DNA from: an archaeon
GTDB taxonomy: Archaea; Nanobdellota; Nanobdellia; Woesearchaeales; GW2011-AR15
Length of the DNA stretch: 64,000 nt
Direction of reading: 5' to 3'
Assembly (NCBI GenBank): GCA_018657065.1
Contig: JABHXU010000008.1
Coordinates: 6,308 to 70,307 of the forward strand
Position numbers and translations under genes: made by a program. Below are positions 19,437-26,026 of this stretch, piece after piece. The notes below the pieces were generated by a model. That model saw only the letters and a program-made list of their open reading frames with translations. It was not told the DNA's origin and did not search any database. Within the stretch, counting starts at the first letter, position 1. Each line of letters begins with the position of its first letter.

Positions 19437-19568
19437 ATGGCTCAAGAATGTATTATTTGTGAAAACAATAATGCAAATTATTGTATAAAAGGAATGGATA
19501 ATTATAGTTATTGTAAAGAATGTGCACTACAACAGTTCTCTGATGTGTCATTATTACAAAGACTTTAA
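19437..19568 (+). CDS. Small zinc-finger protein (43 aa), not in ORF track
   Basis: MAQECIICENNNANYCIKGMDNYSYCKECALQQFSDVSLLQRL; two CxxC. Confidence 0.65.
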   Translation: MAQECIICENNNANYCIKGMDNYSYCKECALQQFSDVSLLQRL

Positions 19569-19606: not shown

Positions 19607-19686
19607 TTTAAATATCTATTTCACCATTTAATAATTGATCACAAGATATTGTGTATTCTTAAAATTAAACATACAACATATTGTAT
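19607..19686 (+). promoter_or_regulatory. TATA box plus two tandem NrdR-box-like palindromes upstream of nrdJ
   Basis: TTTAAATA 19607-19614; TCACAAGATATTGTGT 19639-19654 and ATACAACATATTGTAT 19671-19686 match acaCwAtATaTwGtgt; 32 bp apart start to start. Confidence 0.75.
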
Positions 19687-19710
19687 ATTAGTAGAAAACG
19701 GTGGGGAAAG

Positions 19711-21798
19711 ATGGGAATTAAAGAAGATTTTGAAGATTACATCAAAGAAGTTCCTAAAGAAGATAAATTAGGATTAAATGATAATCAACTTAGAATCATA
19801 TATGCAAAATATTTAATGAGAGATCCAAAAGGTAATGTTATTGAAACACCTAAACAAATGTTTCAAAGAATTTCTAAAACTATTGCTATGCCTGAATCAA
19901 TGTATAAGACAGATGAAGAAGTAGCAATAATTGCTGATAAATTTTATAACATGATGTCAACTTTGGATTTTTTACCTGGTGGAAGAACAATAGCTAATGC
20001 TGGAACTCCAGTAAAAAATTTGGCAAATTGTTTTGTTATTCCAGTTGAAGATAGTATGGAAGGTATTTTTGAAGCAGTAAAAAAAGCTGCTTTAATTCAA
20101 AAAAGAGGAGGAGGAGTGGGATATTGTTTCTCAACTTTAAGACCTAGAAATTCTTGGGTTTCAGGATGCAGTGGAGTTGCATCAGGTCCAATTTCATTCA
20201 TGAGAGTATTTGATGTTATGTGTTCAACAATTATGCAAGGAAATAGAAGAGGAGCACAAATGGCAACATTCCATGTTTCTCACCCAGACATCTTAGATTT
20301 TGTAACAGCTAAAGACGATTTAACACAATTAACTAATTTCAATATTTCTGTTATGGTTGATGACAAATTTATGACTGCTGTTGAAAATGATGGACCTTAC
20401 GATTTAGTTGATCCTCATTCAAATAAAGTAGCTACTACTCTACGAGCTCGTGATTTATTTGACAAAATTGTATATCATGCTTGGAAAACTGGTGAACCAG
20501 GACTTCTATTTGTTGACACAGCTAATAGATATAATACAGTTAGACATTTAGGGGAATTTAAAGCAACAAATCCTTGTGCTGAAATTTGGTTACTTGATCA
20601 CGAAGTTTGTAATTTAGGTAGTATAAACCTAAATAAAATGACAAAAATTGTTGAAGGTAAAACACAAGTAGATTATGAAAAAATTAAAAATATTACACAT
20701 CTAGGAATTCGCTTTTTAGATAATGTTATTGATGCTGGTGAATACCCAACACCTGAAATTGCTATGATGGCTAAAAAAACCAGAAGAATTGGCCTCGGTG
20801 TCATGGGTTTTGCAGATTTATTATATCAATTAGGTCTTCCTTATTCTAGCGAAGAAGGTAGAAAAATTGCTAAGGAAGTAATGAAAATTATTAATGAAGA
20901 AGGTTGGAAAGCAAGTGAAGAAATTGCTAAAGAAAAAGGTGCTTTTCCTGCAATAAGAGGTAGTGATTTTGAAAAACAAGGTAGAATTGTCAGAAATTGT
21001 GCTATAACTGCTATTGCCCCAACTGGAACATTAAGTATGGTTGCAAATACATCTGGAGGATGTGAACCTAATTTTGCTTTAGCTTATATTAAAAATAGTC
21101 ATTCAATTAAAGAAACATTTACTTATGTTAATCAACATTTTGAAAATATAGCTAAACAAAGAGGCTTTTATTCTAAAGAATTAATGGAAACAATTGCAAA
21201 CCAAGGCACTTTAGATGGAATTGATGAAGTTCCGCAAGATGTTAAAAAAATCTTTGAAGTTTCTTTTAATATTTCTGCAGAAGAACATATTTTAATGCAA
21301 GCAGCATTTCAAGAACATGTTAGTAATGCTGTATCTAAAACTATTAATTTTTCAAATTCAGCTACAATTGACCAGGTTAAAGAAGGTTATATGCTAGCTT
21401 GGAAATCAGGTACAAAAGGCGCTACTGTTTATAGAGATGGTTCAAGAGGAAATCAAGTTTTAAATATTAAAGAAGTTAAAAAAGAAGCTAATAAAGAAAC
21501 TCCAAAAGTTGAAGAGATTAAAATTCAAGAAAAACCTTCTGAACCTATGGTCGAATCAATTTTAAAAAATAATGAACTTGAAACTGATGAATCCGTTGAA
21601 AATTCTACAGAGATGCCTTCAACAATTCAAGTTGCACAAATGACTGCAACTTCTGGTGATGCTTCAGTAGTTTTAGAACAGCCTCAAATTTTAAGTTCAA
21701 AACAAATGACTGATTGTCCAGAATGCAAAACAGATCTTGTTAAACAAGAAGGATGTGTTTTATGTCCTGATTGTGGCTGGAGTGCATGTAGTCATTAA
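19711..21798 (+). CDS. nrdJ: Class II (AdoCbl-dependent) ribonucleotide reductase, catalytically intact, no ATP-cone
   Basis: LANCFV, TNPCAE, VCNLGS, IAPTGT, VSKTIN, C-terminal CPEC...CPDC...C; ATG 19711 follows GGTGGG SD. Confidence 0.95.
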   Translation: MGIKEDFEDYIKEVPKEDKLGLNDNQLRIIYAKYLMRDPKGNVIETPKQMFQRISKTIAMPESMYKTDEEVAIIADKFYNMMSTLDFLPGGRTIANAGTPVKNLANCFVIPVEDSMEGIFEAVKKAALIQKRGGGVGYCFSTLRPRNSWVSGCSGVASGPISFMRVFDVMCSTIMQGNRRGAQMATFHVSHPDILDFVTAKDDLTQLTNFNISVMVDDKFMTAVENDGPYDLVDPHSNKVATTLRARDLFDKIVYHAWKTGEPGLLFVDTANRYNTVRHLGEFKATNPCAEIWLLDHEVCNLGSINLNKMTKIVEGKTQVDYEKIKNITHLGIRFLDNVIDAGEYPTPEIAMMAKKTRRIGLGVMGFADLLYQLGLPYSSEEGRKIAKEVMKIINEEGWKASEEIAKEKGAFPAIRGSDFEKQGRIVRNCAITAIAPTGTLSMVANTSGGCEPNFALAYIKNSHSIKETFTYVNQHFENIAKQRGFYSKELMETIANQGTLDGIDEVPQDVKKIFEVSFNISAEEHILMQAAFQEHVSNAVSKTINFSNSATIDQVKEGYMLAWKSGTKGATVYRDGSRGNQVLNIKEVKKEANKETPKVEEIKIQEKPSEPMVESILKNNELETDESVENSTEMPSTIQVAQMTATSGDASVVLEQPQILSSKQMTDCPECKTDLVKQEGCVLCPDCGWSACSH

Positions 21799-21874
21799 TT
21801 TTTTTCTTTAATTTATTCTTTAACGTACTAAAACTTTAAAAATACATAAACAATCTTTTTTTATGGGGTGTATT

Positions 21875-23893
21875 ATGGGAGTTTCTAAAGTTAGAAAGAG
21901 AGATGGAACTATAGTTAGATTTAAACCTTCAAAAGTTTCAACTGCTATTGAAAAATCTATGCTTGCTGTAGGTATGGATGATGATAATTTATCTAAAGAT
22001 CTAGCTGAAAAAGTCATTGATTACGTTAACGAAATCCATGATGATGATTATATAATTGATATTGAAGAAATTCAAGATATTGTTGAAAAAATTTTAATTG
22101 ATGACAACCAAGCTAAATTAGCAAAAGCTTATATTCTTTATAGACAAAAAAGAGCAGAAATTAGAAGATTAAAAGAACATATTCTAGGAAGAATTGAAGA
22201 TTCCAAATTAAATGTTAATGGACTTCTTATAGCCAAATCAAGATATTTATTAAAAGATGATCAAGGTAAAGTTATTGAAACTCCTAAAGAAATGTTTAGA
22301 AGAGTAGCTAAACATATTGCAAGTGCTGAAAGCTTATATAATACACATGAAGTTGATATTGAAGAACTAGAAGAAGAATTTAACGAAATGATTTATTCTT
22401 TAGAATTTATACCTTCAGGTAGAATTCTTGCTAATTCTGGAACAAAAAATAGTATGTTGTTTAGTAGTTTTGTTATTCCTATTGAAGATAGTATGAAAGG
22501 TATTTTTAGAGCTCTTTATTATAAAGCTTTGATCCAAAGATTAGATGGTGGAACAGGTTTTTCATTTTCAAGACTTCGACCAAAAGGAATGAAACTTTCA
22601 ACTACTTCAGGATATGCGTCAGGTCCAACTGCTTTTATAAAATTATTTGATCATGCTAGTAGTTTAAGGGTAGCCGCAGGAAACAGAAAACCTGCTAACA
22701 TGGGATCATTAAATGTTGAACATCCCGATATTATTGAATTTGTTACCATGAAAGACAGAAGAGAAATTAAAAATTTTAATATCTCAGTAGAAATGACTGA
22801 CAGATTCATGGAAGCTGTCAAAAATCACACTCAATATCCTTTAGTTGATCCTAATACTAATGAAGAAATAGATAAGGTTGACGCAAATAATATTTTTAAT
22901 TTAATTGTAACAATGGCCTGGAAAAATGGAGATCCTGGTGTTTTATTTATTGATAGAATAAATAGTGATAACCCTCTTCCATCAATTAGTAAAATAGAAA
23001 CAACTGATCCTTGTGGTGATCAAATGCTCTTACCATATCAGGGAGGAAATTTAGGTGCAATTAATTTAAGTAAATTTGCAAGAAATAAAAAGATTAAATG
23101 GAAACAACTAGAAAAAGTAACTAAACTAGCTGTAAGATTTTTAGATAATACTATTGATTTAAGCAAATTTCCAGTTAAACAAATTGATGATATTGTTAAA
23201 GGAAGTCGAGCTATTGGCCTAGGTATTATGGGCTTTGCTGACATGCTTTATAAATTAAGGATTCCCTATAATAGTGAAAAAGCTTTAGAAACTGCTGACA
23301 AAATTATGAAATTTATTTCACAATCAGCAATGGAAGCATCTAAAGAATTAGCTAATAAAAAAGGTGTTTTTCCTTTTATTGAAAAAAGTATTTACAAAAA
23401 TAAAATTAAGCTTAGAAATTCTTCATTAATTGCAATTGCTCCAACTGGATCAAGAAGTATTTTAGCTGAAACCTCACCAGGTATTGAACCAAATTTTGCA
23501 TTAGGTTATACTAGAAAAATTTTAGGTAGTACTGAAATAGTTCAAATAAATAAAATTCTTGAAAATTTGCTCAAAGAAAAAGATATTTATTCAGAAGAAG
23601 TTGTTAGAAAAATTGTTAAAAACAGATCTTTAGATGAAATTGAAATTGAAGAAAATCTCAAAGAAGTGTTTGTAACTGCACATGATATAAATCCTGAGTG
23701 GCATATAAAAATGCAATCTATTTTTCAAAAACATATTGATAATGGAATTTCTAAAACAATTAATTTTCCTAAAAATGCTACAATGGATGATATTAAAAAA
23801 GCATTTATCATGGCTTATGATTCTGGATGTAAAGGTATAACTGTTTATAGAGAAGGAAGCCTACAAGAAGAGGTGATTTCTTTTGGAAAATAA
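21875..23893 (+). CDS. NrdJ paralog with N-terminal ATP-cone and substituted active site
   Basis: VRKRDG...IEEIQDIVE...AKAYILYR ATP-cone; LFSSFV, TDPCGD, GGNLGA replace catalytic motifs; no Cys tail; ATG 21875 follows GGGGTG. Confidence 0.9.
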   Translation: MGVSKVRKRDGTIVRFKPSKVSTAIEKSMLAVGMDDDNLSKDLAEKVIDYVNEIHDDDYIIDIEEIQDIVEKILIDDNQAKLAKAYILYRQKRAEIRRLKEHILGRIEDSKLNVNGLLIAKSRYLLKDDQGKVIETPKEMFRRVAKHIASAESLYNTHEVDIEELEEEFNEMIYSLEFIPSGRILANSGTKNSMLFSSFVIPIEDSMKGIFRALYYKALIQRLDGGTGFSFSRLRPKGMKLSTTSGYASGPTAFIKLFDHASSLRVAAGNRKPANMGSLNVEHPDIIEFVTMKDRREIKNFNISVEMTDRFMEAVKNHTQYPLVDPNTNEEIDKVDANNIFNLIVTMAWKNGDPGVLFIDRINSDNPLPSISKIETTDPCGDQMLLPYQGGNLGAINLSKFARNKKIKWKQLEKVTKLAVRFLDNTIDLSKFPVKQIDDIVKGSRAIGLGIMGFADMLYKLRIPYNSEKALETADKIMKFISQSAMEASKELANKKGVFPFIEKSIYKNKIKLRNSSLIAIAPTGSRSILAETSPGIEPNFALGYTRKILGSTEIVQINKILENLLKEKDIYSEEVVRKIVKNRSLDEIEIEENLKEVFVTAHDINPEWHIKMQSIFQKHIDNGISKTINFPKNATMDDIKKAFIMAYDSGCKGITVYREGSLQEEVISFGK

Positions 23894-24545
23894 AAAAGTC
23901 AATGATATGCAAAGCTTATCAGGACATAAAAATTCAAAAGAAACTTCTCGTGAAAAACAGTATACTCTCAAAATTTATACAAAAAGGGGTGACGGTGGAG
24001 AAACTTCTTTATGTAATGGATCTAGAACTTTTAAAGATTCATTAAGAGTTGAAGCATATGGTAGTGTTGATGAAGTTAGTTCATATATTGGTCTAGCTAT
24101 TGTTAAAACTTCTCAAGCAGATCTTAAACATCATTTAATGGAAATTCAAAAAGATTTATTTTCTGTTGGAAGTAATTTAGCATTACCTGGAATTTTGGCA
24201 CAATCTCAAATAGGAAAAACATCTCCAATTGAACAAAAAATTCCTAAAATTACTGATGAAATGATTACTAAATTGGAAAATTTAATTGATAAATATGATA
24301 AAGAACTACCTCCACTACACAAATTTATTTTATCTGGTGGAATTGAAGTTTCAACTTTACTTCATGTAGCTAGAGCAATTTGTAGAAGAGCTGAAAGACG
24401 AGTTGTTTCTTTAAAAAGAAGTGAAGAAATTAATAAAAATGTTCTAATATATATGAACAGGTTATCTGATTATTTATTTACAGCAGCAAGACTTGCCACT
24501 CATAGATCTGGAAAAGAAGATCATAAGTGGAATCCTAAAGGGTGA
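23883..24545 (+). CDS. pduO: PduO-type ATP:cob(I)alamin adenosyltransferase
   Basis: [38 protein letters not shown]. Confidence 0.93.
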
Positions 24546-25483
24546 AAAACATGGATGAATATCTTAAATTATTAAATCATATTATGCAAAATGGGTCTGA
24601 AAAAGACGATAGAACTGGAACAGGCACAAAAAGTGTTTTTGGTTATCAAATGAGATTTGATTTAAACAAAGGTTTTCCTCTTTTAACTACTAAAAAAATG
24701 TATATTAGAAGTATTATACATGAACTATTATGGTTTTTGACAGGTAACACAAATATTAGATATCTAGCGAAAAATAAAGTTCATATCTGGGATGAATGGC
24801 CATTTCAAGGATATTTAAATTCAAATGATTTAGAAAAAGATTTTCCAATGTATTCAGATAGCTGGAAAGAAAAAAAAAAGTGGTTTATTAACCAAATAAA
24901 GGAAAATGAAGATTTTGCTAAAAAATATGGTGATCTCGGTCCTGTTTATGGAAAACAATGGAGAGATTTTGATGGTGTTGATCAAATTTCTTGGGTTTTA
25001 AAAGAAATTAAAAAAACTAAAGAAAATAGTAATCATCCTAGTTCTAGAAGACTTCTTGTATCAGCTTGGAATGTTTCGGATATTCAAACCTTAATTAAAG
25101 GAAAAACTTCAGCACCACCTCTTTGCCACACTATGTTTCAGTTTTATGTAAGAAACAATAAACTATCTTGTCAATTATATCAGAGAAGTGCGGATGTATT
25201 TTTAGGAGTTCCGTTTAACATTGCTTCATATTCTCTATTAACAATGATGATTGCACAAATAACTGAATTAGAATTAGGTGACTTTGTTCATACCTTTGGT
25301 GATGCACATTTATACAACAATCATTTAGAACAAACAAATCTACAATTAAGTAGAGAACCTAAAGAACTTCCAAAGATGATTCTAAATCCAAATGTAACGA
25401 ATTTATTTGACTTTAAATTTGAAGATTTTGAATTAAAAGATTACAACCCACACCCTAGAATTAAAGCACCTATCGCCGTTTAA
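24542..25483 (+). CDS. thyA: Thymidylate synthase
   Basis: [39 protein letters not shown]. Confidence 0.96.
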
Positions 25484-25543: not shown

Positions 25544-26026
25544 ATGACTTTATCAATGATTTGGGCAATGGGAAAAAATAGAGAATTAGGAAAAGGATTA
25601 AAGATTCCTTGGCACATACCTAGAGACTTTAAACATTTTAAAAAAATTACTTCAAGGCATAGCATTATTATGGGACTCAAAACTTATGAATCTCTAGATA
25701 AACCTTTACCAAATAGAAGAAATATTGTTTTAGATTTCAAAATTCATGACATTAAAGATGTTGAATTTGCTACTTCAATTCCTATGGCAATTGAAATGGT
25801 CAAAGATGAAGATGAAGCTTTTGTTATTGGAGGAGCTTCAATATATAAACAATTCTTTCCTTTTGTCAATAAATTATACATCACTCATATTGAACATGAA
25901 TTTGATGCAGATATTTTTTTTCCTGAGTTTGATTTAAATAAATGGGAACTTGTTAGTGAAACCAAAGGAATAAAAGATGAAAAAAATCCTTTTGATTATT
26001 TTTTTAGAGAATATGTCAGAAAATGA
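25544..26026 (+). CDS. folA: Dihydrofolate reductase
   Basis: IPWHIPRDF, IMGLKTYES, PLPNRRNIV, IGGASIY, DIFFP. Confidence 0.95.
   Translation: MTLSMIWAMGKNRELGKGLKIPWHIPRDFKHFKKITSRHSIIMGLKTYESLDKPLPNRRNIVLDFKIHDIKDVEFATSIPMAIEMVKDEDEAFVIGGASIYKQFFPFVNKLYITHIEHEFDADIFFPEFDLNKWELVSETKGIKDEKNPFDYFFREYVRK

Follow-up and report, generated by a model that had tools for sequence, protein, structure and literature searches.

Overall-activity control of class II ribonucleotide reductases (RNRs) is poorly understood, and most of these enzymes (NrdJs) have no ATP-cone. This work concerns two nrdJ-type genes that lie next to each other in a 64,000-nucleotide stretch of DNA (the window) from an archaeon of the order Woesearchaeales (GenBank assembly GCA_018657065.1, contig JABHXU010000008.1). 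Gene 1 encodes an intact NrdJ without an ATP-cone. Gene 2 encodes a paralog that keeps the ATP-cone and lacks the reducing residues and the C-terminal Cys tail, and it may serve as a regulatory partner of gene 1. The best solved match of both proteins is the NrdJ of Thermotoga maritima (1xje; E 1.2e-114 for gene 2 and 4.9e-121 for gene 1), which has the same fold and domain order. Like T. maritima NrdJ, gene 2 has the radical Cys, the finger loop, the phosphate loops and the alphaA/alphaB helices. Unlike it, gene 2 has a full ATP-cone and is without the Cys pair, the Asn, the Glu and the tail.

In class I RNRs that carry the cone on the partner, the catalytic subunit is likewise cone-less and the on/off domain lies on another protein. 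That partner, however, is an active radical-generating ferritin subunit, whereas the partner proposed here is a dead copy of the catalytic subunit and the enzyme belongs to class II. In the yeast Rnr2/Rnr4 pair, an inactive paralog without cofactor or catalytic residues is kept as the obligate partner of the active one. These are small (beta) subunits of class I without an ATP-cone, and for gene 1 and gene 2 the binding is predicted.

Herpesvirus R1 homologs, such as UL45 of human cytomegalovirus (HCMV), are likewise inactive but retained homologs of the RNR large subunit; they differ in that they control host signalling and cell death, lie outside any deoxynucleoside triphosphate (dNTP) operon and conserve neither cone nor pocket (PMC5469499). 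Frankia and some Alphaproteobacteria have two NrdJd proteins, of which one carries the Cys-rich domain (Loderer et al. 2017, PMC5704485), so there is likewise one tail per system. In Pseudomonas the class II enzyme is split into NrdJa and NrdJb (PMC4520616), so that, as here, two polypeptides share its functions. Unlike for gene 2, no loss of active-site residues is reported in the available text for the two-NrdJd organisms or for NrdJa/NrdJb. Full-text literature searches returned no description of a cone-bearing, redox-dead NrdJ paralog, although supplementary tables may list such sequences, and the available parts of the Burnim et al. preprint and of Lundin et al. 2010 do not mention such paralogs.

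Gene 1 is an intact NrdJ, and gene 2 keeps the ATP-cone without the reducing residues

Gene 1 matches the RNR all-alpha (PF00317) and barrel (PF02867) families of Pfam, the ATP-cone being absent, and scores 672.8 bits against TIGR02504 (cut-off 399.95). It carries the motifs LANCFV, QGNRRGA, TNPCAE and VCNLG, with the redox Cys pair at C117 and C310, and keeps all five of the T. maritima positions C134, N320, C322, E324 and C333. The C-terminus reads DCPEC...CVLCPDCGWSACSH and has 6 Cys within the last 45 residues (CPEC...CPDC...C), which makes a Cys-rich or zinc-finger tail. The apical phosphate loop is P-G-G-R, of the triphosphate type, and loop 1 is very conserved. The open reading frame (ORF) can be read from a TTG (19681..21798), but the ATG at 19711 is the likely true start, since the TTG falls within an upstream palindrome.

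Gene 2 is an uninterrupted ORF of 676 residues that matches the ATP-cone (PF03477, 68.7 bits versus a cut-off of 25.8), all-alpha and barrel families. The two proteins are 43% identical over 566 residues in a pairwise alignment, and the gene 1 motifs pair with altered forms in gene 2: LANCFV with LFSSFV, QGNRRGA with AGNRKPA, TNPCAE with TDPCGD and VCNLG with GGNLG. In the alignment with T. maritima NrdJ (chain numbers read off the alignment offsets), S202 corresponds to C134, D382 to N320, D386 to E324 and G395 to C333, and C384 corresponds to C322, the radical Cys, which is kept. Gene 2 stops 3 residues past the barrel without any tail Cys. It therefore lacks the NPCxE finger loop, the redox Cys pair and the C-terminal Cys by which class II competence is judged. 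We take the roles of the C134/C333, N320, E324 and C322 equivalents in both genes to be the textbook ones. Gene 2 is thus predicted to be unable to reduce nucleotides, because the thiol pair is lost, the Asn and the Glu are both Asp, and no tail is left to re-reduce the site. Its TIGR02504 score (618.9 bits) is nevertheless above the cut-off, and gene 2-like proteins are named adenosylcobalamin-dependent reductases at NCBI. On helix alphaA the charges are swapped between gene 2 (K212, R216, Y219) and gene 1 (E127, E131, K134); as these residues may or may not face the partner, the swap was not used as evidence.

A first-pass annotation, made from the letters of the window, had described gene 1 as cone-less with all class II residues, and gene 2 as an uninterrupted frame with an ATP-cone, the S/DPCGD/G replacements, AGNRKPA and no Cys tail. 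Pfam and the alignment with 1xje bear out the first description, the second holds as well, and the six codon positions given (20029, 20575, 20608, 22466, 23012 and 23045) recompute correctly from the ORF starts. Among class II sequences at large, NPCxE is found in 3,175 of 3,347 and absent from 172, and many tails without a zinc finger have no Cys (PMC9669993). In the available part of that paper the sequences without NPCxE are not followed up.

The gene 2 family is conserved and under purifying selection

The database contained 7,981 matches to gene 2 at E <= 1e-20, and motifs were counted in the 120 best of them, all of which carry PF03477 (120/120). The finger loop was [TS]DPCGD in 41 of these, TSSCAE in 7, TDPCGE in 1 and TGPCAD in 1, and 70 had the canonical NPC[GA]E with both Cys. 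In a FastTree tree of 138 rows, from which the window's own protein (P0001) and matches longer than 900 aa (to avoid inteins) were excluded, the gene 2 clade comprised 46 rows with support 98 and spanned about 50–100% identity. DPCGD was found in 45 rows and DPCGE in 1. The first redox Cys was kept in 5 of the 46 rows and the second in 2, and P0027 alone had both. An IQ-TREE tree of 78 chosen rows (LG+G4, SH-aLRT only, rooted on two long PF08471-type NrdJs) gave an SH-aLRT of 99 for the DPCGD clade (19 sampled rows) and 98 for DPCGD and TSSCAE together. The homolog survey that the first-pass annotation had proposed thus found the S/DPCGD/G pattern well beyond the window, and since it recurs as a conserved family, the pattern is more than chance.

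In the family alignment of 38 sequences, D382, P383, C384, G385, D386, G398, A399, G186, R187, P527, G529 and R531 are invariant. The cone residues K12, R13, F20, E68, Q71, D72, E75, K88, R94 and R101 are also invariant in 38/38; nucleotide contact is presumed for part of them, namely the KR of VxKRDG. Of the 281 columns with a conservation of at least 90% across 66 canonical cone-bearing NrdJs, the gene 2 family keeps 187. Its near-fixed replacements are T188I, C202S, K219Y, R276K, N382D, E386D, S399A and TGTIS to TGSRS. In the alignment, several universal residues thus give way to new near-fixed residues and not to noise, and the pocket is remodelled.

The apical phosphate loop divides NrdJs into diphosphate reducers with P-N-S-P and triphosphate reducers with P-[ASG]-G-R (Schell et al. 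2021, PMC8365446). T. maritima NrdJ has P-N-S-P (PMC8365446), and so does the canonical cone-bearing group nearest gene 2, versus P-S-G-R in gene 2 itself, in which G186 and R187 are invariant in the 38 sequences. The gene 2 pocket looks like a nucleotide-triphosphate site. Because the G-R pair is invariant in the family, the possibility that this pocket still binds or acts was kept among the alternatives.

Selection was estimated by the Nei-Gojobori method on 8 genomes that hold both genes, where mean pairwise identity was 78% for gene 1 and 73% for the gene 2 core and most pairs were saturated at synonymous sites. In the closest pair (G123–G128), the ratio of nonsynonymous to synonymous rates (dN/dS) was 0.074 for gene 1, 0.069 for the gene 2 core and 0.157 for the gene 2 cone. 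The reading frame was intact in every gene 2 copy examined. These results indicate that gene 2 is under purifying selection despite the lost catalytic residues. The early suggestion that the substitutions were selected and not decayed is upheld by this dN/dS, by the invariant DPCGD across the deep clade and by the invariant cone residues.

Complementary loss and co-occurrence of the two genes

In the IQ-TREE tree, the cone-less gene 1 clade (8 rows, support 100) lies inside a 13-row clade (support 100) whose other 5 members are intact, tailed and cone-bearing. This nesting shows that the gene 1 lineage lost its cone. Genome G082 has no RNR match other than a cone-bearing relative of gene 1. 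In the gene 2 lineage the cone was retained, and the redox residues and the tail were lost. The label 'variant' requires 4 changes on this tree, at least 2 of which are forced by starred branches, so degenerate cone-bearing paralogs arose more than once. A recent tandem duplication of gene 1, which the first-pass annotation had implied as the origin of gene 2, was ruled out: both trees place the genes in different NrdJ lineages, and their identity is 43%.

Co-occurrence was assessed by whole-genome Pfam searches and motif reading. The back-translated pattern TDPCGDQxL[LF]PY matched 14 species genomes, and the back-translated gene 1 pattern ATNPCAEIWLLD matched 13. The gene 1 type was present in 14/14 genomes with a tight-clade gene 2, counting G139, in which gene 2 is an N-terminal fragment (the first 238 aa, at a contig end). 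DPCGD gene 2 was present in 14 of the 15 genomes with the gene 1 type. Adjacency, which had been suggested as part of the pattern, holds in part. The genes are neighbours on one contig in G000, G067, G125, G137, G127 and the genome of locus L077 (with an 850-nt gap), they lie 8–10 kb apart on one contig in G121 and G122, and they are found on different contigs in G123, G128, G129, G130, G136 and G139. In G127, the gene 1-type nrdJ beside an intact DPCGD gene (L073, G127:C197:1-843) has one in-frame TAA; the gene may be broken, the codon may be recoded, or the TAA may be an error of sequencing.

A search for related loci with gene 2 as the sole query returned 8 loci, all of them distant relatives at 43–49% identity. 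All 5 checked genomes with distant DPCGD members (G045, G063, G077, G124 and G126) hold another NrdJ with intact motifs. The intact NrdJ adjoins the DPCGD gene in G126 and G124 and lies elsewhere in G077 and G063; in G045, a cut gene 1-like C-terminus is found upstream of the DPCGD gene, and another contig carries a long NrdJ.

In 11 of 13 assessable pattern loci, an adenosyltransferase gene (PduO type in 10, CobA type in 1) lies on the 3' side of the DPCGD gene. It stays with gene 2 in G123, G128, G129, G130 and G136, where gene 1 is on another contig, and in G121 and G122. However, among the ordinary cone-bearing NrdJ genes of the order, a CobA-type adenosyltransferase lies 3–297 nt downstream in 11/15, an adenosyltransferase lies upstream in 1/15, and none is in the locus in 3/15. 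Because the adjacency is common to ordinary cone-bearing NrdJs, it is best read as inherited synteny. It was therefore rejected as specific proof that gene 2 uses B12, for which the link is weak evidence.

A putative regulatory partner subunit

From sequence comparison, we regard it as an even call that complementary loss turned gene 2 into a non-catalytic subunit, which senses ATP/dATP and works together with the catalytic NrdJ. An ancestor with cone, core and tail would have degenerated in complementary ways into two mutually dependent proteins. Gene 1 would be the working nucleoside triphosphate (NTP) reductase, with the Cys-rich tail and without the cone. Gene 2 would retain, under strong selection, a working ATP-cone, a pocket for nucleotide triphosphates and the entire barrel with its alphaA/alphaB dimer helices. 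The two proteins would form a hetero-oligomer, either an alpha/alpha' dimer joined at the usual interface of four helices or an assembly of higher order, and the ATP or dATP state of the gene 2 cone would set the activity of gene 1. The remodelled dead pocket of gene 2 might be a further nucleotide-sensing site. Both the physical interaction of the two proteins and the regulation by ATP/dATP are what we infer from this arrangement. The first-pass annotation had left the choice between a regulatory subunit supplying the cone in trans and a non-reductive radical enzyme. The regulatory subunit is favoured because of the complementary domain loss, the near-obligate co-occurrence and the recurrence in other lineages. 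The host genome, which has no further RNR, and the tandem NrdJ fusions with one tail described below also speak for this reading.

Several observations weigh against this reading. In G138 (completeness not given), the gene 1 type is present and gene 2 was undetected. The two genes are on different contigs in 6 genomes and 8–10 kb apart in 2 more. The only other RNR of G077 carries its own ATP-cone, so in the wider clade the supply of a cone in trans can be no more than part of the explanation. DPCGD, the radical Cys, the G-R apical loop and the new distal-loop Arg are all invariant; such pocket conservation exceeds the needs of a scaffold and points to ligand binding or chemistry. If the specificity site is built across subunits, a simple 1:1 heterodimer would leave the conserved loop 1 of gene 1 facing a dead site, and loop 1 would argue for more than a simple 1:1 dimer.

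Alternative functions of gene 2

Alternatively, gene 2 would still be an adenosylcobalamin (AdoCbl) enzyme that binds an NTP, forms a thiyl radical on C384 and performs a non-reductive reaction gated by the ATP-cone, which we consider doubtful. Candidate reactions are a redox-neutral 2'-dehydration to a 3'-keto-2'-deoxynucleotide and a hydrogen exchange or isomerisation. In favour of the proposal, RNR mutants or inhibitors that block the reducing face yield 3'-keto-2'-deoxynucleotides; against it, such a product is unstable and reactive. C384, D382, D386, G186-R187 and R531 are invariant in 38/38, and a G-R loop goes with triphosphate substrates (PMC8365446). The adenosyltransferase gene also stays with gene 2 when gene 1 is elsewhere, but this adjacency is equally usual for ordinary cone-bearing NrdJs (11/15). 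Moreover, the operon has only genes for dNTP and dTMP, none of which could use an odd product, an intact RNR always accompanies gene 2, and related degenerate paralogs vary in the finger loop, one of them being without the radical Cys. That the DPCGD proteins are a new kind of AdoCbl/thiyl-radical enzyme on the RNR scaffold, in which an NTP would be bound and its 3'-hydrogen abstracted, either for a non-reductive reaction or with the chemistry serving as a nucleotide sensor, is decidedly unlikely.

Gene 2 might instead act without binding gene 1, as a free nucleotide- or cobalamin-binding protein: a sensor or buffer of dNTP/ATP, or a helper that accepts AdoCbl from the neighbouring adenosyltransferase and passes it on. 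Both the cone and the phosphate pocket show invariant residues, gene 2 and the adenosyltransferase gene are tightly placed and often overlapping (11/13 assessable DPCGD loci, PduO or CobA), and this gene pair is separated from gene 1 in the five genomes with gene 1 on another contig that were named above and in G121 and G122. However, the same synteny is seen in ordinary NrdJ genes, and we know of no precedent for a B12 chaperone of a class II RNR. A free protein would also leave unexplained why the cone loss of gene 1 accompanies the presence of gene 2. We consider this function unlikely.

It is highly improbable that gene 2 is a true reductase with another electron source, for example a small molecule of the kind that class III enzymes use. 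Gene 2 does retain the radical Cys and phosphate loops of the substrate type, the TIGR02504 score exceeds the cut-off (618.9 versus 399.95) and databases name a reductase, but the full redox Cys pair is present in just 1/46 clade rows (DPCGD in 45/46, DPCGE in 1/46), and no examined clade member is the sole RNR of its genome. A decaying pseudogene left by duplication, which the loss of several catalytic residues might suggest, is refuted by the dN/dS of 0.069 in the closest pair, the frame intact in all copies examined and the new fixed, invariant residues of a clade that spans about 50% identity, and its probability is next to nothing.

Similar paralogs and fusions in other lineages

An order-level sample of 121 genomes, 65 of which gave an RNR match at E <= 1e-30, contains other cone-bearing, tail-less NrdJ paralogs with different lesions. 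An intact NrdJ is adjacent to the paralogs with the finger loops TDSCAS (G102), TSPCAE (G107) and TIPTGE (G116, radical Cys lost), as well as to those with the milder loops TNQCGE (G094) and TNLCGE (G020), where the Cys is kept. For VSACAE (G003) the intact NrdJ is on another contig. The TSSCAE clade comprises 5 Woese-/Nanoarchaeota genomes, and an intact, long NrdJ lies 2–3 kb upstream on the same strand in 4/5.

No intact NrdJ was found in G037 (97% complete), whose only RNR match is a 739-aa cone-bearing TSACAE protein without the betaA Cys and without a tail (L052, G037:C11). Either this protein is an unusual working RNR or the organism is without ribonucleotide reduction. The protein belongs to another clade and is possibly a working variant, and it was counted neither for nor against. 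In G020, three NrdJ genes stand in a row on the minus strand (L046, G020:C60:944-6746), with a CobA-type adenosyltransferase downstream: a cone-bearing TNLCGE protein without tail, a cone-less protein of 567 aa and a cone-bearing TNPCGE protein without tail. With this query, 56 of the 121 genomes, many of them >90% complete, gave no RNR match at E <= 1e-30, which would fit a widespread reliance on deoxynucleotides from the host.

Tandem fusions of two NrdJ units account for 84 of the 146 homologs of at least 1,184 aa and are mostly labelled Patescibacteria. These proteins (P0391–P0472, P0121 and P0122) are 1,370–1,625 aa long with both finger loops intact, and some carry a Ham1/ITPase domain (PF01725). 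A single Cys-rich C-terminal tail region was present in 40/40 fusions with tails tabulated. Therefore, two unlike NrdJ units that share one tail exist as one molecule. No fused gene 1–gene 2 (DPCGD) protein was found among the 146 homologs.

Gene row and host genome

The features of the locus are collected in Table 1. From 19.4 to 26.0 kb, all genes of the row are on one strand. The adenosyltransferase ORF overlaps the end of gene 2, its precise start being uncertain, and the thymidylate synthase gene overlaps the adenosyltransferase gene by 4 nt. The genes of a bacterial-type thymidylate route, ThyA and DHFR, thus share an operon with the nrdJ pair. The order gene 2, PduO, ThyA, DHFR is repeated in G125 and G130, and the G136 locus stops inside ThyA.

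Table 1. Positions of the nrdJ pair, its altered residues and the neighbouring features in the window
Feature	Position	Strand	Basis
Small Cys-rich ORF, 43 aa (C-x2-C ... C ... C-x2-C)	19437..19568	+	Translation
Two NrdR-box-like palindromes	19641..19684	.	Pattern match; candidate boxes
Gene 1, cone-less class II RNR (NrdJ)	19711..21798	+	Pfam, TIGR02504, alignment
Gene 2, ATP-cone NrdJ paralog without reducing residues or tail (DPCGD family)	21863..23893	+	Pfam, alignment
ATP-cone of gene 2, residues 9-98	21887..22156	+	Pfam PF03477, 68.7 bits
Gene 2 apical phosphate loop P184-S-G-R187, triphosphate type	22412..22423	+	Alignment, PMC8365446 motif
Gene 2 S202, replacing first redox Cys (T. maritima C134)	22466..22468	+	Alignment
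Gene 2 finger loop D382-P-C384-G-D386, replacing N-P-C-x-E	23006..23020	+	Alignment
Gene 2 G395, replacing second redox Cys (T. maritima C333)	23045..23047	+	Alignment
Gene 2 R531, distal phosphate loop APTGSRS versus APTGTIS	23453..23455	+	Family alignment
PduO-type ATP:cob(I)alamin adenosyltransferase	23883..24545	+	Pfam PF01923; TIGR00636, 199.4 bits
Thymidylate synthase ThyA	24542..25483	+	Pfam PF00303, E 1.2e-110
Dihydrofolate reductase (DHFR)	25544..26026	+	Pfam PF00186, E 7.8e-56

The host genome is 1.49 Mb and 95.65% complete, and it contains no RNR gene besides gene 1 and gene 2, neither NrdD nor NrdB being found at this completeness. The GC content of the window is ~28%. The named relatives are Woesearchaeota and Nanoarchaeota. 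The stretch is present in marine and seawater metagenome runs, and 3 metatranscriptome runs contain 0.07–0.13 of its sampled words.

The two palindromes, of 12 bp each (ACAAGATATTGT at 19641 and ACAACATATTGT at 19673), lie 32 bp apart just upstream of the gene 1 ATG, and the 64-kb window contains no further exact match to ACAANATATTGT. The consensus and spacing applied to them are those we assume for NrdR boxes. The host genome also encodes NrdR (TIGR00244, 192.7 bits versus a cut-off of 124.65; L004:1354-1812, contig C14), so that an archaeal NrdR stands together with two candidate boxes before the nrdJ operon. If the boxes act, the dNTP operon would also be under cone-based control at the level of transcription.

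The small Cys-rich ORF was found by tblastn just upstream of a gene 1-type nrdJ in 10 genomes, and it stays with gene 1 even where gene 2 sits on another contig. It matches no Pfam family above the cut-off. It might encode a third component of the system, such as a mini-protein with a zinc or redox role.

Implications

Because gene 2 scores above the TIGR02504 cut-off and its relatives are named reductases at NCBI, counts of organisms with two NrdJs and predicted phosphate specificities may include non-reductases (for example among the 1,108 organisms of PMC8365446), and RNRs may be miscounted when the metabolism of DPANN archaea is reconstructed. If the pocket is chemically active, the gene 2 family would extend B12 radical chemistry on nucleotides. 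If gene 2 is the regulatory partner of gene 1, the two genes would illustrate cleanly how complementary loss leads to subfunctionalisation in nature, and RNR allostery would have a new design, in which a dead, cone-bearing copy of the catalytic subunit is dedicated to control.

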